64,000 nucleotides of DNA from an uncultured Lachnospiraceae bacterium. Lineage in GTDB: Bacteria > Bacillota > Clostridia > Lachnospirales > Lachnospiraceae. The translations under genes were made by a program, and so were the position numbers. The stretch spans positions 779-64,778 of the forward strand of contig CADACD010000013.1 of NCBI GenBank assembly GCA_902786365.1, given 5' to 3'. Shown here in pieces: positions 2,114 to 25,456 of this stretch (position 1 is its first letter; each line of letters opens with the position of its first letter). The notes beneath the pieces were generated by a model. It was not told the origin of the DNA, searched no databases, and saw only the letters and a program-made list of their open reading frames with translations.

Positions 2114-4843
2114 CTACATCTTATTTTCATCTGCAGTATCTGAATTTTCTACATCTCCCACAGATTGTCTCTCTTCACTATCTTTTTTAGCTGCTTCTAA
2201 CAATCTCTCCAATGAATTATCTTTTACATTACTTGTTACATTATTTTCATTATCTGTGTTCTCATTTGAGATGGTATCTTTTTTTATTTCTGTGGTTTCA
2301 TTCAAATTTTCATCTGCATTTTCACTAATTGTTTTATTAGCATTTTCATTCATATTGTCATCTTTTTCGATAATCTTTACAGTCGAATCTTCTGCATCTT
2401 TTGGATTTTCTCTTACTTTAGCGATGCTTGCTACTTTTACTTTTTCGTTATCAATATTCATCAATTTGACACCGGAAGTATTTCTTCCGATTACGGAAAT
2501 GGTATTTACAGGGAACTGTATGATAATACCCTCATTTGTAATCAACATGACTTCATGCTCGTCATTGACTGCCTTTACACCGATAACATATCCTGTCTTA
2601 TCATTGACTCTGTAGCATTTAAGTCCCTTTCCACCTCGTTTCTGTGTCTTAAATTCAGCAATATCCGTTCTCTTGCCCATTCCGTTTTCAGTGACAATTA
2701 AAAGTGCGTCTCCCTGATTATTAAACTGCATTCCAACAATCTCATCACCGTCTTCCAAATCCATACCAAAGACACCCATCGATGTTCTCCCTGTGTTTCT
2801 GACATCTTTTTCATGGAATCTGATACACATTCCGTACTTGGTAACAAGGAAAATCTCTTTCTCATTATTTGAAGTTTTTACCTCAATTAACTCATCATCT
2901 TCCTTGAGATTAATTGCCTGAAGTCCTGTCCTTCTCATATGTGAAAAATCACTGATATGTGTTTTCTTTACAATACCATGTTTTGTAGCCATGAACAGAT
3001 ATTTCTTGTCTTCATAATTCTTGACAGCTATCACTGCCGATATCTTTTCTCCTGGCTGAAGCTGTAAAAGATTAATTAGTGCTGTTCCTCTCGCTGTTCT
3101 TCCAGCCTCTGGTATCTCATACGCTTTCAGCCTGTAGACTCTTCCAAGATTGGTAAAGAACATAATATAATTGTGAGTATTTGTCATCAACAAATCGACA
3201 ATATAATCGTCATCGATTGTCTGCATACCCTTGATTCCTTTACCTCCTCTATGCTGGCTCTTGAAATTATCTACTGTCATTCTCTTGATATATCCATAAT
3301 TTGTTCTTGCAATAATTGTATTCTCATTAGGAATCAAATCTTCATCTGAAATTTCATCGTCAAAGCCAATCTTTGTTCTCCTGTCATTTCCATATTTTTC
3401 GGCAACAATCATAATTTCTTCTTTAATGACACCGAGAAGTTTCTTTTTATCAGCAAGAATTGACCTAAGCTCGTTTATCTGAATTTCAAGCTCTTTTAAT
3501 TCATTTTCAAGCTTCTCTCTTTCCAAACCTGTCAGAGCTCTCAGACGCATCTCAACAATACTGTGAGCCTGCGCCTCGGTAAGTGAGAATTTTTCCATGA
3601 GAGCTTCTTCTGCTAACTTGGCAGTTCTAGAACCTCTGATAATACTAATAACCTTGTCAATATTGTCAAGTGCAATCAGCAGACCTCTCAAAATATGAGC
3701 ACGCTCTTCTGCCTTATTTAACTCATATTTTGTTCTTCTTGTGACAACATCCTCCTGATGTTTTAAATAATATTTTAACATCTGATAAATATTTAAAATC
3801 TTTGGCTGATTGTCAACAAGTGCCAACATGATGACACCAAATGTGTCCTGGAGCTGAGTATGTTTATATAAGTGATTGAGAATGATGTTAGGGTTCACAT
3901 CTCTTCTCAATTCAATTACAACTCTCATTCCGGACTTGTCTGACTCATCACGCAAATCGGTAATACCGTCTACTTTTTTTTCTTTGACAAGATCTGCTAT
4001 CTTTTCAATCAATTTTGCTTTATTGACCATGTATGGAAGCTCAGTAACAATAATTCTGCTCTTGCCGCTGTCCATCGGTTCGATATTCGTTACTGCTCTT
4101 ACCTTTATCTTTCCACGTCCTGTTCTATAGGCATCTTCTATCCCTCTTCTTCCAAGAATAGTCGCACCTGTCGGAAAATCCGGTCCCTTAATCACATCAA
4201 GCAATTCATCAATATCAGTATCTCTATCTTCATTGACTTTGTTATCAATCAATTTGATAACACCATTTACCACCTCTCTTAAATTGTGAGGTGGAATATT
4301 CGTAGCCATACCTACAGCGATACCACTTGTTCCGTTGATTAAAAGATTCGGCACTCTTGCCGGAAGTACAACAGGTTCTTTTTCTGTTTCATCAAAGTTT
4401 GGTGTGAAATCGACTGTGTCTTTATTGATATCTGCGAGCATCTCCATAGAAATTTTGCTGAGTCTTGCCTCTGTATAACGCATGGCTGCAGCTCCGTCAC
4501 CATCCACTGAACCAAAATTTCCATGTCCGTCTACCAATGGATATCTTGTTGACCATTCCTGTGCAAGATTAACCAACGCTCCATAGATGGAACTGTCACC
4601 ATGTGGATGATATTTACCCATTGTATCACCTACAATACGTGCACATTTACGATGCGGCTTGTCAGGTCCGTTATTCAGCTCTATCATTGAATACAAAATT
4701 CTTCTCTGAACAGGCTTTAAACCATCTCTTACATCCGGAAGGGCTCTTGCCGCAATAACACTCATGGCATAATCAATATAAGACTTTTCCATTGTCTTTT
4801 TCAGGTCTACTTCATGAATTTTGTCAAATTCCTTTTCATCCAT
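2114..4843 (-). CDS. gyrA: DNA gyrase subunit A with long acidic C-terminal tail
   Basis: [25 protein letters not shown] (catalytic Tyr), GyrA-box QHRGGKG. Confidence 0.98.
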
Positions 4844-4864
4844 TCTATCATTACTACCTTTCTA

Positions 4865-6934
<2,070 letters not shown>

Positions 6935-16897: not shown

Positions 16898-18808
16898 ATG
16901 CCGAATATTTGTGAAGAGTATGATTTAGTTGTGGTTGGTGCAGGCCATGCGGGATGTGAGGCAGCACTTGCCGGTGCAAGGCTTGGACTTCGTACAATTA
17001 TGTTTACGGTAAGTGTAGATAGCATTGCACTTATGCCTTGTAATCCTAATATTGGTGGAAGTTCAAAAGGTCATTTGGTGAGAGAAATAGATGCATTGGG
17101 TGGTGAGATGGGAAAAAATATTGATAAAACATTTATCCAGTCTAAAATGCTCAATTCTTCAAAGGGACCTGCTGTACATTCACTTCGTGCGCAGGCTGAT
17201 AAGCAGGCATATACAAGAAGTATGAGGTTGGTACTTGAAAATACGGATAATCTTACAATAAGACAGGCAGAGGTATCTGAAATTATTGTAGATGATGGTG
17301 TGATAAAAGGTGTCAAAACTTTTTCAGGTGCAGAATATCACGCAAAGGCAGTAGTACTATGTACGGGAACTTATCTCAAAGCAAGATGTATATATGGAGA
17401 TGTGAGTAATTATACAGGACCAAATGGATTGCAACCTGCAAATTATCTGACAGATTCTTTGAAGGCAAATGGAATTGAAATGTTCCGGTTTAAGACAGGA
17501 ACACCGGCAAGAGTTGATAAGCGTTCTATTGATTTTAGTAAAATGGAAGAGCAGTTTGGAGATGAAAGAGTTGTTCCATTTTCATTTTCAACAGATCCTG
17601 AGTCGGTTCAGAAGGAACAGGTTTCATGCTGGCTTACATATACAAATGAGGAAACTCACAAAATTATAAGGGATAATCTTGACAGGTCGCCTTTATTTTC
17701 GGGAGCAATTGAGGGAACAGGTCCAAGATATTGTCCTTCGATTGAAGATAAAGTAGTAAAATTTGCTGATAAAAACAGACATCAGGTATTTGTTGAACCG
17801 GAAGGATTGTATACAAATGAGATGTATCTTGGTGGAATGTCAAGTTCACTTCCAGAAGATGTGCAGTATGCAATGTATCGGACCGTCAGGGGACTTGAAA
17901 ATGTGAAAATAGTGAGAAATGCATATGCGATAGAGTATGACTGTATCAATCCTATGCAGCTTAAGTTGACTTTGGAATTTAAGAAAATTAAAGGATTGTT
18001 CAGTGGTGGTCAGTTTAATGGAAGTTCAGGATATGAGGAAGCAGCGGCGCAGGGATTGATAGCAGGTATCAATGCATCGTTATATGTGCTTGGAAGAGAA
18101 CAGATTGTACTTGACAGGTCTCAGGCTTATATCGGTGTTCTCATAGATGATTTGGTTACAAAAGAAAATCATGAGCCATACAGAATGATGACTTCCAGAG
18201 CAGAGTACAGGCTTTTGCTTAGACAGGATAATGCAGATATCAGATTGAGTAAGATAGGATATGAAGTAGGACTTGTAAGTAAAGAAATGTATGACAAGGT
18301 TTGCAAAAAAGAGGAACTCATTGAGAAAGAAATTGAGAGATTGAATAAAGTTCCAATTGGGGCAAACAGTGAGGTTCAGAAGTTTTTGGAAGAGCATGGC
18401 AGTACACCTTTAAAAACGGGTTCAACACTTGCAGAATTGATTAAACGACCTGAGCTTAATTATGATATGCTTAAAGTATTCGATTTAAACAGAGTGGACT
18501 TGCCTTATGATGTAATCGAACAGGTAAACATTCTTATTAAATATGAAGGTTATATTACAAGACAGCTTAAGCAGGTAGAGCAGTATAAGAAGCTGGAAAA
18601 TAAAAAGATAGATGAAGAGATTGATTATAATGATGTAAAAAGTCTCAGAAATGAGGCAAGACAGAAATTAAATAGTGTAAGACCTTCATCAATAGGACAG
18701 GCATCAAGAATATCGGGCGTTTCTCCGGCAGATATATCAGTACTTCTTATTTATTTGGAACAGTACAATCATGAAAAACATTTGAAAGATAAGTTGGAAA
18801 ATGGTTGA
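16898..18808 (+). CDS. mnmG: tRNA uridine-5-carboxymethylaminomethyl modification enzyme MnmG (GidA)
   Basis: [53 protein letters not shown]. Confidence 0.98.
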
Positions 18809-18860: not shown

Positions 18861-19607
18861 ATGTATCATAAAGAATATATATATGAACAATTCAAAAAAA
18901 TTAATATAGAACTAAATGAAAAACAAATTAATCAATTTTATCATTATTTTGAAATGATTGTTGAAAAAAATAAAGTTGTCAATTTAACAGCAATTACAGA
19001 ATATGAAGATGTAGTGATTAAGCATTTTGTAGACAGTGTTCTCGTATCACAAATTGATGGTATCAGAAACTTATTAGAAGTTAATGAAAATACAGAGGTG
19101 CAATTGATAGATATTGGTACAGGAGCAGGCTTTCCGGGAATACCATTAAAAATAGTATATCCGAACATTAGTATTACATTATTAGATTCACTTAATAAAA
19201 GAATTACTTTTTTGAATGAAGTGATTGAACAATTGGAATTAGAGGATGTAAATTGTATTCATGGAAGAGCAGAAGATTTTGGTTCCAACAATGATTATAG
19301 AGAAAAATATGATATATGCGTTTCAAGAGCAGTGGCGAATCTTTCAACATTAAGTGAATATTGTGTACCATTTATAAAAGTTGGGGGAATTTTTGTATCA
19401 TATAAATCTTCAGGAGCTGCAGAGGAAGTAGTGAATGCGAAAAATGCAATGAAAAAATTAAATTGTCGAATCAAGGAAGTAAAAGAATTAGAACTTATTC
19501 AATCAAATGAAGTATATCAGAGAAATTTCGTGATAATAGAAAAGAAAAAAAATCTTGATAAGAGGTATCCTAGAAAGGCAGGAATGCCAGCCAGAAATCC
19601 TTTGTAG
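18861..19607 (+). CDS. rsmG: 16S rRNA m7G527 methyltransferase RsmG (GidB)
   Basis: NLTAIT, HFVDS, DIGTGAGFPG, GRAED, SRAVA. Confidence 0.96.
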   Translation: MYHKEYIYEQFKKINIELNEKQINQFYHYFEMIVEKNKVVNLTAITEYEDVVIKHFVDSVLVSQIDGIRNLLEVNENTEVQLIDIGTGAGFPGIPLKIVYPNISITLLDSLNKRITFLNEVIEQLELEDVNCIHGRAEDFGSNNDYREKYDICVSRAVANLSTLSEYCVPFIKVGGIFVSYKSSGAAEEVVNAKNAMKKLNCRIKEVKELELIQSNEVYQRNFVIIEKKKNLDKRYPRKAGMPARNPL

Positions 19608-19708: not shown

Positions 19709-21229
19709 GTGAATAAGATAATGAATAATTTAGTTTCTTATTTGAATAATGAAAGAAATAGTATTGCAAATTCTATCAACGAAATAAATGAGAAAATAAA
19801 TAAGAGTAAATATGAATTAGAAAATATAGAGAAAAAAATTGTTGAACATTCTAAAAATGTTGATACAACTTATGAGATTTTTTCGCCAAATGCATATGAT
19901 AAAGACTACTACATTATTGAAATTCAAAAACTCAATCAAACTAAAAATGAAATCAGTAAAAAAATAGAAAGTATGTTAGAAGAAGAAAATCAGCTTTTGA
20001 AACAACAAAGGGTAATTGAATTGGCATATGAAGATTATGTAAAATTCCAACAACATCTTTTTGAGGAAGAAGTAGAAAATAAAAGAATAATGGAAAAGAA
20101 AATAAATGAGTTAAATTTGAAACATTCAAATGAGATCATTCAAGTTTTGGAATACCAGATTAATAAAGATAATCATTTTTTAAGTGATGAAGTGGTAAGA
20201 CAATTAGATATTATAAAAAATAAATTGTCTTTATGTGAAAATTTTGTTGACATGGATATCAACAGAGCAAAATTGGAAATGTTAAAAACAGCTGAAGAAG
20301 TATCTTATTTCAAAAAGCGACTAGACTCCGAAATGTTTCACGTGAAACATTTTGATAGTAACAGCAGACTTAATTTGAATAGTGAGATAAAAAAATTTAT
20401 AAATCAATACAAAAAATCTATTAATGCTCAGCTTGAATACAATTATATTGGAAGAAAAATTGAAGATAGTTCTTATAATATTGTAAATCTTATTAGAATA
20501 ATTAAAGAATCAATTGATAATGCTGATAATCATGCAAATGGAACTAATATTAGTGTTACAGTTATTGTTGAAGATAATAAGCTTAATGATGATTATTTTG
20601 ATGATTATGATATAGAAAAGGCAGTGAACAATCAAAAGGAGAGTATTATTGATATAAGTATGTTTAATGCTAGGAGAGTTAGTAAAGAAGAAAAATATGA
20701 AGACTCAGATTTTCATGAATTTAAAGAGAATGCTGATATTGATAATTATAATTTAAATGATGAAGATGTAGGTCTATCTGATAATAGTTTAGAAAACATG
20801 GATATAGATTTAATTAATAACAGTGTAGAAAACAAAAATAAGGATTTATTCAGTAACAATATAGAAGCTTATGAAACAGATTCAGATTTATTTTCCAATT
20901 GTATTAATAATGATGAAACAAATAATAACTTATCAAATAGTAATGAAAATGATGAATTATTTAATACTGTTTTAAGTGATAAGGCCAACAAAGATATGCA
21001 TCAGATTAATTTTATCATTGATGAAACGACTGATAAGTTTAATGTCATTATAAAAATATCTGATAATGGAGATGGATTTAATCTTTATAATGAAAATATG
21101 TTAATTGAAAATGGGCTGTTTGGTATTTATATGATGAAATACAGAACTAAAAAAATAAATGGTAAATTTCATATTCAATCTGATCAGGGTATAGGAACTA
21201 CTGTAACTATTATTTATCAAGCAGGATAA
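19709..21229 (+). CDS. Degenerate DegS/NarX-type histidine-kinase-like protein (coiled coil, DHp-like region, split HATPase_c)
   Basis: N-box IIKESIDNADNHA, G1 ISDNGDGF, G2 FGIYMMKYRTKKINGKFHIQSDQGIGTTV; H-box reads FLSD; about 150-aa Asn/Asp-rich insert. Confidence 0.7.
   Translation: MNKIMNNLVSYLNNERNSIANSINEINEKINKSKYELENIEKKIVEHSKNVDTTYEIFSPNAYDKDYYIIEIQKLNQTKNEISKKIESMLEEENQLLKQQRVIELAYEDYVKFQQHLFEEEVENKRIMEKKINELNLKHSNEIIQVLEYQINKDNHFLSDEVVRQLDIIKNKLSLCENFVDMDINRAKLEMLKTAEEVSYFKKRLDSEMFHVKHFDSNSRLNLNSEIKKFINQYKKSINAQLEYNYIGRKIEDSSYNIVNLIRIIKESIDNADNHANGTNISVTVIVEDNKLNDDYFDDYDIEKAVNNQKESIIDISMFNARRVSKEEKYEDSDFHEFKENADIDNYNLNDEDVGLSDNSLENMDIDLINNSVENKNKDLFSNNIEAYETDSDLFSNCINNDETNNNLSNSNENDELFNTVLSDKANKDMHQINFIIDETTDKFNVIIKISDNGDGFNLYNENMLIENGLFGIYMMKYRTKKINGKFHIQSDQGIGTTVTIIYQAG
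20334..20349. promoter_or_regulatory. parS site inside a CDS
   Basis: Perfect palindrome TGTTTCACGTGAAACA. Confidence 0.92.
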
Positions 21230-21756
21230 AATTATATATTATTTAATCATACTGTGTAAAATAATTTTACACCAATTGATATTAGCCGATAAAAACAATA
21301 ACATAGTTTACATTGATTATCATTTTATCGAATAGTCTATAAATTATATAAAAAATCTAGTGATTAATTTATATAATAAACAGATGGGAAGTAAGCAACT
21401 CTTATTATATCTGAAAAAGGATATAGTAGGAGTTTTTATTAATTAGAAATATTTTAGAATTACTTATGATTCTGCAACTTTGGAAATGGAAAAGTTATAT
21501 AATATTGTAGGCAGTTACATATTAATTTGCTTGTAATAAACTGAAGATATTATTTAACATAAGTAGCAGATAGGAAAACAATGTCAATTTGTATAATGTT
21601 ACTAGAAGAGAGGAGCATTTTTACGAGTTTAAATATTTGTATTAGTATAATTTATTGAAGAAAAGAAAAGCTGAATGGAGTGAAGCATTCCTTTCACTCG
21701 ATAAATCAGCAACATACTCAAGGTCTGGGGCACTATCATGTTGAAGAAGTGGTTAA

Positions 21757-21772
21757 TGTTTCACGTGAAACA
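21757..21772. promoter_or_regulatory. parS site, intergenic
   Basis: Perfect palindrome TGTTTCACGTGAAACA, 233 bp upstream of parA. Confidence 0.95.
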
Positions 21773-22005: not shown

Positions 22006-22899
22006 ATGAGTAGAGTAATTGCAATAGCTAACCAAAAAGGTGGAGTAGGAAAAACAACAACATCTATTAATCTTTCAGCATGTCTTGCAGAAAAAGGGAA
22101 AAAGGTTCTTGTAGTAGATATTGATCCTCAGGGTAATACGACAAGTGGGTTTGGAGTGGACAAGAATAATCTTGAGAATACAATATACGAATTATTTCTT
22201 GGAGAGTGCGATATAAATGATTGTATGATTAAAGATGTCATTGAAAATCTTTCTTTGTTACCGGCTAATGTGAATTTATCAGGAGCAGAGATTGATTTGC
22301 TCAGTGTGGATAAAAGAGAATATATTTTAAAAAAGTATATTGACAAAGTAAGAGATGAATATGATTTTGTGATAATAGATTGTCCTCCTTCATTGAATAT
22401 ACTTACTGTGAATGCGATGACCACGGCTGACACTGTTTTAGTAACGATACAGTGTGAATATTATGCATTAGAAGGATTATCACAGTTAATACATACTATC
22501 AATCTGGCAAAGAGCAGATTAAATCCATCACTCGAGATGGAAGGTGTAGTATTTACAATGTATGATGCAAGAACAAATTTATCTTTAGAAGTAGTAGAGA
22601 ATGTAAAGCAAAGTCTTTCACAAAGTGTATATAAAACAATTATACCAAGAAATATAAGACTGGCAGAAGCACCTAGTCATGGTATGCCAATCAATCTGTA
22701 TGATTCAAAATCTGCAGGTGCTGAAAGTTACAGACTATTAGCACAGGAAGTGATATGTAATGATGAGGGAATAGAATTTGATATCAATAGTTTTAAAGAT
22801 AGTAATGAAAAAACTGGATCAAAGGAAAACGATAAGAATAAAAATACGAAAAAAGGGAGAGTATCTAAGATAAAAAAAAGGATCAATAAGGAAAAATAG
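22006..22899 (+). CDS. parA: Chromosome partitioning ATPase ParA/Soj
   Basis: NQKGGVGKTTT, DIDPQGN, IIDCPPSL, QCEYYALEGL, PRNIRLAEAPSHG. Confidence 0.97.
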   Translation: MSRVIAIANQKGGVGKTTTSINLSACLAEKGKKVLVVDIDPQGNTTSGFGVDKNNLENTIYELFLGECDINDCMIKDVIENLSLLPANVNLSGAEIDLLSVDKREYILKKYIDKVRDEYDFVIIDCPPSLNILTVNAMTTADTVLVTIQCEYYALEGLSQLIHTINLAKSRLNPSLEMEGVVFTMYDARTNLSLEVVENVKQSLSQSVYKTIIPRNIRLAEAPSHGMPINLYDSKSAGAESYRLLAQEVICNDEGIEFDINSFKDSNEKTGSKENDKNKNTKKGRVSKIKKRINKEK

Positions 22900-23082
22900 A
22901 AGTAAGATATTATTATAGATAATCTCTTTATTATACGTTAAAATGTATAAAATAAAGAGATTAAATTAAGTAATTAATGTCAAATGCAATAGAGATGTTG
23001 CATTAACTAAAATATCAATAAAATAGAAACGTTGTATTAAGTAAAAATACTAGATTAAAAGAAATTGTTAAAAGAGGTAAAA

Positions 23083-23970
23083 ATGGCAACAAAAAGAGGA
23101 TTGGGTAAAGGATTAGATTCACTGATTCCTATTGGTGAAGTAAAAGAAATTAATAAGCATACTGTTTCAAAGGAAGTAGAAGATGGAGTTACTACAATAA
23201 AAGTTAATTCGATAGAACCAAATAGAGAACAGCCAAGGAAGAATTTTAATGAGGATTCTTTGATTGAATTGGCAGAATCTATAAAACAGCATGGAATAAT
23301 ACAACCTTTAGTAGTTCAGAAAAGGGATGATTATTATGAAATTATTGCCGGTGAAAGAAGATGGAGAGCAGCAAAGCTGGCAGGAATTAAAGAAGTACCT
23401 GTTATTATAAAAGATTATACAGGTCAGCAAGTAGTTGAAATTGCACTTATAGAAAATATCCAGAGAGAAGATTTGAATCCAATTGAAGAGGCGATGGCTT
23501 TTAAGAGACTTATGACAGAGTATCATTTAAAGCAGGATGAATTGGCAGAGAGAGTATCAAAGAGTAGAACGGCAGTTACAAATTCTATGAGACTTCTAAA
23601 ATTGTCAGATCCTGTTCAGCAGATGGTGATAGAAAATCTTATCTCAAGTGGCCATGCAAGAGCGTTGCTTTCGATTGAGGATCAAAATACTCAGGAAAGA
23701 ATTGCTGAAAAGATAATGGATGAAAAATTGAGTGTAAGAGAAACAGAAAAACTTGTTAAAAAATTAACAACCTCAAAAGAAAAAAAACAACCTGAGCCAA
23801 TTGTAAATGAGTTTGTTTACAGAGATATTGAAAGTAAAATAAAGGATATTGTGGGTTCAAATGTTAAAGTAAATCATAAAGCAAATGGAAAAGGAAAAAT
23901 TGAAATAGAGTATTATTCAAATGCAGAACTAGACAGAATATATGAGTTATTTTTAAATATGAATAAATAA
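23083..23970 (+). CDS. parB: Chromosome partitioning protein ParB/Spo0J
   Basis: GLGKGLDSLI, QPRKNF, IIAGERRWRAA, ENIQREDLNPIEEA; start at ATG 23083 after GAGGT. Confidence 0.97.
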   Translation: MATKRGLGKGLDSLIPIGEVKEINKHTVSKEVEDGVTTIKVNSIEPNREQPRKNFNEDSLIELAESIKQHGIIQPLVVQKRDDYYEIIAGERRWRAAKLAGIKEVPVIIKDYTGQQVVEIALIENIQREDLNPIEEAMAFKRLMTEYHLKQDELAERVSKSRTAVTNSMRLLKLSDPVQQMVIENLISSGHARALLSIEDQNTQERIAEKIMDEKLSVRETEKLVKKLTTSKEKKQPEPIVNEFVYRDIESKIKDIVGSNVKVNHKANGKGKIEIEYYSNAELDRIYELFLNMNK

Positions 23971-24515: not shown

Positions 24516-24595
24516 TCTGCACCAAAGTTATCTGCACCGGTACAAGTTACAAGTAGTATATATAATATGGCAGTTATATGAGGAAACGAGGAAAA

Positions 24596-25456
24596 ATGCA
24601 TAATTATTTTAGAGCAATTGGTTTTGGAAAAGGATATAAGAAAAATTTAATAAGAAGTATTATCAGCAAAACTGTGTATGATTACAGCAAGAATAATACA
24701 AAAGATACATTTGGAAAGATCATAGAAATTTTTGTTAAGTTTGATAAATCAATAGGGCTAGTAATTCATGGTGAGTTTGTTGAAAATGATAAATTTGAGA
24801 TAGAATATGTTTTTCCATATTTGAAGGCAAAAAATTTCTCTTTTTATGAAGAAATTGTCATAGAAAAGAATGTATATAATTATTCATTCTCAGCGGGGTG
24901 CGATAATAAAAGTACAGGGGTTACAATCATTTTTTATCTACAGAATGATTTGGATTATGTCAATAATCGATTTCCAAATAAACTATCAGCGGAAGTAGGA
25001 CTGTCAGGTCTCGCACTTGATGGAAAGATTATTTTTCCTGCTAAGGAATACGATGAGTATAACTCAACATATAATAAGATGATGCAGGATAAAATAAGAC
25101 TTATTACAAAGGCGCAAAATGGTGATGAAACAGCAATGGAGAACCTTACAATTGATGAAATGAATGAGTATACAAAATTGTCAAAAAGAATTATGACTGA
25201 AGATGTTTTAAGCATTGTAAATACAAGTTTTATGCCGTATGGAATGCAGTGTGACAGATATACAGTGATAGGCAAAATTCTTGATATCGAGGTTTGTACT
25301 AATAGAATTACAAAAGAGAAAATTTATAATATGACATTAGAATGTAATGAGATAATTTTCAATATTGCGATTAATGAAATTGATTTGATTGGCCAGCCGA
25401 AAGTGGGGAGAAGATTTAAAGGAAATATCTGGTTGCAGGGTGTGATTAAATTTTAA
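24596..25456 (+). CDS. DUF3881-family protein
   Basis: MHNYFRAIGF start, FYLQN, SFMPYG..CDRY, GRRFKGNIWLQG end. Confidence 0.75.
   Translation: MHNYFRAIGFGKGYKKNLIRSIISKTVYDYSKNNTKDTFGKIIEIFVKFDKSIGLVIHGEFVENDKFEIEYVFPYLKAKNFSFYEEIVIEKNVYNYSFSAGCDNKSTGVTIIFYLQNDLDYVNNRFPNKLSAEVGLSGLALDGKIIFPAKEYDEYNSTYNKMMQDKIRLITKAQNGDETAMENLTIDEMNEYTKLSKRIMTEDVLSIVNTSFMPYGMQCDRYTVIGKILDIEVCTNRITKEKIYNMTLECNEIIFNIAINEIDLIGQPKVGRRFKGNIWLQGVIKF

Follow-up and report, generated by a model that had tools for sequence, protein, structure and literature searches.

The window analysed here, a 64,000-nucleotide stretch of an uncultured Lachnospiraceae bacterium (assembly GCA_902786365.1, contig CADACD010000013.1, positions 779 to 64,778), carries the origin region of a Clostridia genome of low GC content. 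Between rsmG and the partition genes parA and parB lies an open reading frame (ORF), confirmed as real and as placed in this interval, which encodes a histidine-kinase-like protein, hereafter HKL. The protein is probably a soluble, ATP-binding histidine pseudokinase descended from a HisKA_3 kinase of the same interval, and its gene carries, in frame, a perfect parS, the DNA site on which the partition proteins act. The coordinates of all features are collected in Table 1.

Two parS sites are present, one inside the HKL ORF (parS-1) and one in the intergenic region before parA (parS-2); both match the 16-bp palindrome TGTTNCACGTGAAACA perfectly, and they have an identical core of 22 bp in common. 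They equal the consensus TGTTTCAC-GTGAAACA that has been used experimentally (PMC7383237), and ParB-CTP loads at parS sites generally (PMC7333895). By chance, 0.19 matches would be expected in the window even with up to two mismatches allowed, against the two perfect sites observed. Both are origin-proximal and adjoin parAB, parS-1 lying about 9 kb from dnaA, and they are the only sites with at most one mismatch in the assembly, which is a draft of 3.12 Mb in 126 contigs with 98% completeness. Among 15 genomes of the genus, a genome has one to four perfect parS sites, typically two, and nearly all of them are at the HKL locus. The HKL gene is present in 13 of the 14 other genomes, and parS sites at the HKL locus were likewise found in 13 of the 14. 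The genus would be Bovifimicola, since the orthologue from a genome of the same genus is 100% identical to a protein recorded as 'sensor histidine kinase [Bovifimicola ammoniilytica]'.

The site parS-1 is also read as protein. Codons 209-214 of HKL (20333-20350; ATG TTT CAC GTG AAA CAT) contain it and encode MFHVKH, and all 12 genus orthologues whose DNA was examined have a parS in this same reading frame. In a codon alignment of 11 full-length orthologues, these six codons are the only run in which every nucleotide is invariant, including the GC-ending CAC and the four-fold-degenerate GTG, while third-position identity at the other invariant four-fold codons is just 45-64%. Because the codons are a perfect parS and are nucleotide-invariant across the genus, MFHVKH appears to reflect a constraint at the DNA level. 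In the protein family, FHVKH occurs in 110 of 110 members and holds the only invariant histidines, His211 and His214. The hexapeptide stands at the junction of the DHp and catalytic ATP-binding (CA) domains, where canonical kinases have 'IYDLRPM', and residues 208-214 show low predicted local distance difference test (pLDDT) values in the structural model, as a low-confidence and structurally permissive linker.

Among the cluster representatives of 1.84 billion proteins, only 172 match HKL at E≤0.001; the full-length representatives of the HKL clade all have FHVKH and none has an H-box, while the canonical relatives show the reverse, an H-box without FHVKH. FHVKH was also seen in two more distant relatives, P0267 and P0243. 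One predicted protein begins with MFHVKH, and gene prediction programs may place ORF starts at the ATG that parS contains.

Table 1. Genes, protein regions and sites of the rsmG-parA interval and its surroundings (window coordinates).
Feature	Position	Strand	Remarks
dnaA	9770-11161	minus	
dnaN		minus	
yidC, jag, mnmE		plus	precede mnmG
mnmG	16898-18808	plus	
rsmG	18861-19607	plus	upstream boundary of the interval
HKL pseudokinase ORF (putative)	19709-21229	plus	506 aa counted from GTG 19709
N-terminal helical hairpin, residues 1-145	19709-20143	plus	common to canonical interval kinases; presumed input domain; from model and alignments
Loop motif K49-N-V-D-T-T-Y-E-I-F-S-P-N61	19853-19891	plus	near-invariant in the family; in model loop 52-61
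Degenerate DHp (HisKA_3-derived) hairpin, residues 146-208	20144-20332	plus	without H-box and without DxxxQ
His156	20174-20176	plus	alternative acceptor of the initial annotation; H/N/K in the family, not conserved
Ser159	20183-20185	plus	at the canonical phospho-His position; S/G/N/K/T/E across the family
parS-1	20334-20349	n/a	perfect TGTTTCACGTGAAACA within the HKL ORF, in the DHp-CA linker
CA domain part 1, residues 220-292	20366-20584	plus	N-box E267, N271 (20519-20521), H275
Disordered acidic Asn/Asp-rich insert, residues 293-440	20585-21028	plus	in a beta-hairpin of the CA domain
CA domain part 2, residues 441-506	21029-21226	plus	G1 D452-N-G-D-G456 (21062-21076); G2 G472, R479; G3 G496-T497
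Terminator-like hairpin	21397-21434	plus	downstream of the HKL ORF; consensus scan only
parS-2	21757-21772	n/a	perfect TGTTTCACGTGAAACA, intergenic, 233 bp upstream of parA
parA	22006-22899	plus	partition protein acting on parS
parB	23065-23970	plus	partition protein acting on parS; followed by a DUF4446 gene

In Pfam, HKL matches HATPase_c (PF02518) only, split over two stretches with a score of 34.6 bits (cut-off 26.4), while HisKA_3 (PF07730) gave no match even at E≤10. NCBIfam gave partial matches to NarQ, UhpB and NarX, far under their cut-offs, and neither Pfam nor NCBIfam recognized a DegS-type N-terminal domain or any other named sensor domain in HKL or in its canonical relatives. The catalytic domain of VraS (4gt8) aligns to residues 260-290 and 446-500, and to nothing in between. 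An AlphaFold (AF2) model of the monomer, built from a 20-sequence alignment with a mean pLDDT of 68.9, consists of a helical hairpin (helices 2-51 and 62-177) whose second helix continues into the DHp, DHp helix 2 at residues 184-208, and an alpha/beta catalytic domain, while pLDDT falls below 50 over the disordered residues 293-440. The best Foldseek matches to this model are VraS (TM score 0.79, normalised to the target) and DesK. The N-terminal coiled coil proposed in the initial annotation is borne out as a helical N-terminus by the two long model helices, and the protein has no transmembrane segment, as had also been proposed (maximum 19-residue Kyte-Doolittle hydropathy 0.49). The loop of this hairpin carries the K49-N61 motif, and its counterpart in the canonical relatives is D.(T/A)FE(I/V)FSP.

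The degenerate DHp hairpin has a Ser where the phospho-accepting His of the H-box would be expected, and this register, first read from the sequence alone, was reproduced by two alignment methods. An hhalign comparison of 20 family members with 21 canonical relatives (probability 100%, E 4e-40, 311 columns) sets Ser159 opposite the canonical His (L-S-D against L-H-D), and Ser159 takes the same place in a gapless L-INS-i alignment, for which the conserved Glu148 and Cys176 serve as anchors. A register from MAFFT --auto, with V162 opposite the His, was superseded, as hhalign and L-INS-i agree on Ser159; in none of these three alignments does a His stand at the canonical phospho-His position. Together with the missing HisKA_3 match, these alignments agree with the earlier assignment of a His-less H-box. 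In NarX studies, the DxxxQ phosphatase motif directly follows the phospho-His. This motif is absent from HKL, which reads S159-D-E-V-V-R-Q in the window and S-N-I-V-K-K in the family consensus, while the canonical relatives continue from the acceptor as H-D-S-T-V-Q.

It is very unlikely that HKL is still an active kinase, with His156 or His211/His214 as the acceptor and a remaining NarL-type regulator or some other substrate as the target, even though its ATP-binding boxes are intact and it offers candidate histidines. One of these is His156, which lies in the window protein one helical turn upstream of the canonical site and had been suggested as an alternative acceptor; this suggestion is weakened by its replacement, since the residue is His in 4 of the 11 aligned genus orthologues and Asn or Lys in the other 7, as well as in several other family members. 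The others are His211 and His214, whose invariance throughout the family might be taken as a sign of catalysis. However, they lie in the low-confidence DHp-CA linker and not in DHp helix 1, and their codons belong to a perfect parS in which 18 nt are invariant, rare GC-ending codons included. The constraint on the DNA is enough to account for the invariance of both residues, so that they were ruled out as an alternative acceptor, and the invariant double His is best explained by the ParB-site constraint on DNA. The loss of DxxxQ also speaks against an active kinase, and both NarL-type regulators of the genome have adjacent kinases of their own.

In the CA domain, E267, N271, D452, G454, G456, G472, R479, G496 and T497 are invariant in the family, and the conserved short element D-M/L-H-Q-I-N-F, immediately ahead of the G1 strand, is peculiar to this family. 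In the closest unsaturated orthologue pair, the ratio of nonsynonymous to synonymous substitution rates (dN/dS) is 0.078 at dS 0.30, and the HKL protein is therefore under strong purifying selection. Invariant ATP boxes and a dN/dS near 0.08 fit a retained ATP-binding, non-catalytic role.

The same data bear on the idea that the ORF is a decaying relic, persisting solely as the carrier of an essential parS while its protein is functionless, which is most improbable. Such a relic might be expected at a labile locus where the kinase-regulator pair has decayed several times independently, and HKL does evolve far faster than its neighbours, with identities of 32-56% against 76-85% for ParA, and with a hypervariable insert. 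However, the ORF is uninterrupted in all 12 genus genomes examined, the unsaturated orthologue pair shows the low dN/dS given above, and proteins that are only 30-55% identical overall share invariant ATP-binding residues and an invariant N-terminal loop motif. Moreover, parS needs just 16 bp and is intergenic in most of the genera surveyed. The relic idea was rejected on dN/dS and motif invariance.

The insert that separates the two parts of the CA domain consists of 148 residues, of which 19% are Asn and 15.5% Asp; it is rich in Glu too and has a net charge of -28. DLFSN occurs in it at residues 379 and 393 and ELFNT at 416, and the underlying DNA contains a 36-bp tandem repeat (20781-20866). 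The spacing between the flanking beta-strands ranges from 12 to 176 residues in the family, with a median of 27, and differs between two close relatives as 28 against 99 residues. Judged from these lengths, the insert is a low-complexity loop, prone to slippage and specific to its lineage, in a hairpin that tolerates it, and not a conserved domain. The split ATPase domain noted initially is thus real for this protein, with its separation of about 150 Asn/Asp-rich residues and its DLFSN repeats, but as a hypervariable stretch it is not a conserved feature of the family.

The region downstream of rsmG was surveyed in 40 further genera of the family, beyond the contigs of the first relatives. In about 10 of some 44 other genera or contigs examined, the interval holds a canonical pair. 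Its kinase is of the HisKA_3 type, about 340-376 residues long, with the H-box 'ERQRIARDLHD' and the N-terminal motif D.TFE.FSP, and a Response_reg+GerE (NarL-type) regulator follows directly after it. In most of the surveyed genera, the interval contains only two or three parS sites and then parA. In a maximum-likelihood tree, the HKL proteins group as a single clade (SH-aLRT 97) whose stem is long (1.09 substitutions per site); the clade is nested among the interval kinases, and the two HisKA_3 kinases of the genome itself lie elsewhere.

As had been stated from the window alone, no response regulator adjoins HKL, either in the interval or in the 780-bp gap between the ORF and parA. No remnant of one was found in this gap by a genome protein search or by blastn and tblastx against 59 related loci; only parS and about 150 bp proximal to parA are conserved there. 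The assembly has only two NarL-type regulators (C31 and C8), each beside its own HisKA_3 kinase. An orphan NarL-type regulator elsewhere was also considered and rejected, as C31 and C8 each have a kinase partner, and the other two candidates, C65 and C58, belong to the OmpR type. Since other genera keep an intact kinase and regulator, while here the regulator is gone and only the His-less derivative is found in the genus of the window, the pseudokinase reading is supported. The proposal of a kinase-derived, non-phosphorylatable protein is supported by this survey, by the Ser register, and by the absence of DxxxQ and of a regulator.

Several of the surveyed loci hold shortened or altered forms of the pair. 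L018 (8001-9298) carries a His-less kinase with 'LNN' for 'LHD', followed by an 87-residue GerE-only protein without a receiver domain, the final codons of which (...NVSRETF*) are parS read in another frame; this locus appears to represent an intermediate stage of the same decay. In L057, a degenerate kinase-like ORF of 305 residues (4306-5223) ends 10 bp before parA, and in L030 an ORF of 109 residues (789-1118) comprises the N-terminal hairpin domain only, with three parS sites after it; in these two loci, the N-terminal domain appears to persist for longer than the kinase core. At L055, the regulator is accompanied by a broken kinase. L032 (G085; 3894-5543) has seven perfect parS sites between the regulator gene and parA, five of which lie about 122 bp apart (4137, 4258, 4381, 4504 and 4626) and have the appearance of a tandem array.

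The favoured history begins with a cytoplasmic sensor kinase of the HisKA_3 type (NarX/DegS/DesK/VraS class) and a NarL/GerE-type regulator, of the kind that share the rsmG-parA interval in other genera of the family. In Bovifimicola, the phospho-acceptor His and the DxxxQ motif would have been lost along with the regulator gene, the beta-hairpin of the CA domain would have become a hypervariable disordered loop, and the DHp-CA linker would have gained a perfect parS read in frame as MFHVKH. The present protein is probably dimeric through its DHp and would bind ATP without transferring phosphate, while it may signal by protein-protein contact via the conserved loop of the N-terminal hairpin (K49-N61); the role of scaffold or ATP sensor suggested initially would be a possible one. 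ParB-CTP would load at both parS sites, the in-gene one included, and the gene would thereby double as half of the chromosome's centromere. Homology, positional orthology, intact ATP motifs, purifying selection and nucleotide invariance of parS are all observed for HKL, and it has no conserved acceptor residue and no partner regulator of any kind.

Some points weigh against this pseudokinase reading. The window protein itself retains His156 close to the canonical position, and most family members have another residue in place of the first Gly of the G2 box, which could alter the nucleotide affinity. The structural model is moderate in confidence and covers the monomer only. Further parS sites could sit in the gaps of the draft assembly. 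The statements on ATP binding, on absent autophosphorylation and on ParB binding are inferences from sequence.

In comparison with known systems, HKL has the same DHp and GHKL architecture as the HisKA_3-class kinases (NarX/NarQ, DegS, DesK, VraS and LiaS), including the N, G1, G2 and G3 boxes of GHKL, with the first Gly of G2 not conserved. Common descent is indicated by the hhalign match, the syntenic slot and the grouping in the tree. In contrast to these kinases, whose H-box consensus is E..RIARELHD and which have a cognate NarL/LuxR-type regulator, HKL is without the acceptor His, the DxxxQ motif, a HisKA_3 match, a regulator, and a sensor or transmembrane region, and it differs further by the disordered insert and by the parS-encoded hexapeptide in place of 'IYDLRPM'. 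As it fails three defining features, namely the His, DxxxQ and the cognate regulator, HKL should not be filed as a histidine kinase, which is what public annotations call its orthologues.

HKL fits instead the class of bacterial histidine pseudokinases, in which the fold is kept and the His is absent under purifying selection. DivL of Caulobacter has a Tyr for the catalytic His (PMC4211667), and PsmA of Streptomyces is a histidine pseudokinase (PMC12963549). Like HKL, both have a kinase fold without the catalytic His, are under selection, and have a proposed protein-protein role, in their case in the cell cycle or polarity. However, they belong to the HisKA or hybrid subfamilies, whereas HKL is of the HisKA_3 subfamily, has no PAS or receiver domains, is confined to one genus of gut Lachnospiraceae-like Clostridia, and has an acceptor position that is not fixed to one residue.

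The location of the gene raises a further possibility, that HKL is an accessory of ParABS or origin segregation, for example as an adaptor that depends on ATP and contacts ParA or ParB at the centromere in its own gene. This reading is unlikely, although it accords with several observations: its place between rsmG and parA is strictly kept, every species has a parS within the gene, the presence of FHVKH and the loss of the H-box co-occur perfectly across the representative clusters, remnants of the N-terminal domain stand next to parS or parA in other genera (L030 and L057), and His-less kinase homologues work in cell-cycle and polarity complexes, such as DivL (PMC4211667) and PsmA (PMC12963549). 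Synteny alone is nevertheless weak evidence, as parS is commonly found inside unrelated coding sequences; in four genera, a perfect site lies within the 5' part of parB (L037 at 5422, L040 at 4906, L047 at 6962 and L054 at 4001). Most genera of the family also have no such gene in the interval, and here a terminator-like hairpin and the 780-bp gap intervene between HKL and parA. The shared gene order and the exceptionless association with parS hint that HKL may act on ParA, ParB or SMC.

In Bacillus, the ParB paralogue Noc is encoded between rsmG and soj, the same genomic position as HKL; Noc, however, is a ParB-family DNA-binding protein, while HKL is a GHKL/DHp protein without a DNA-binding domain and without homology to it. 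A parS within a coding sequence is also already known from Bacillus, as B. subtilis has a site within spo0J, reportedly described by Lin and Grossman in 1998. The HKL site resembles such sites in being a perfect 16-bp palindrome, origin-proximal, next to parAB and inside an ORF, but it is one of only about two in its genome and fixes six codons of a signalling protein genus-wide. What is new is the combination of a coding-sequence parS with a His-less interval kinase. The two might be functionally coupled, either because the gain of parS disabled the kinase and freed the regulator for loss, or because the protein was recruited as a genus-specific accessory of ParA, ParB or SMC; such a coupling is speculative and improbable, and in the recruitment version, if true, HKL would be an analogue in the Noc slot built from a two-component kinase.

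Taken across genera, one chromosomal slot presents a natural decay series, from an intact kinase with its regulator, through a His-less kinase with an HTH-only regulator and a lone ATP-binding pseudokinase, to an N-terminal fragment or nothing, which is useful for asking what kinase scaffolds do after the loss of phosphotransfer. The locus also calls for caution in motif-based inference, as invariant histidines set by a DNA site would mislead searches for alternative phospho-acceptors. In addition, the centromere is a tractable one, as the chromosome in this genus seems to depend on about two parS sites, of which one sits in a transcribed gene; Bovifimicola ammoniilytica, which is named and presumably cultured, would lend itself, as a simple system, to studies of how ParB loads inside a coding region.

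The gene order mnmG-rsmG-HKL-parA(-parB) is kept in 11 other genomes of the genus. The true start of HKL is probably ATG 19721 (M5; 502 residues) rather than GTG 19709, because all homologues begin at the equivalent of M5. GTG 19709 lies only 2 nt past a GAAGG motif, and the start codon is ambiguous. No structured RNA was recognized in or near the HKL gene by Rfam at E≤1. Downstream, positions 21230-21750 form an AT-rich stretch of about 520 bp without an ORF, an Rfam match or similarity to the equivalent region of relatives, and in the other species of this genus the gap 3' of HKL measures just 130-520 bp. Beyond parB and the DUF4446 gene lies a DUF3881 gene (24578-25456); DUF3881 and DUF4446 are both conserved genes of the origin region.

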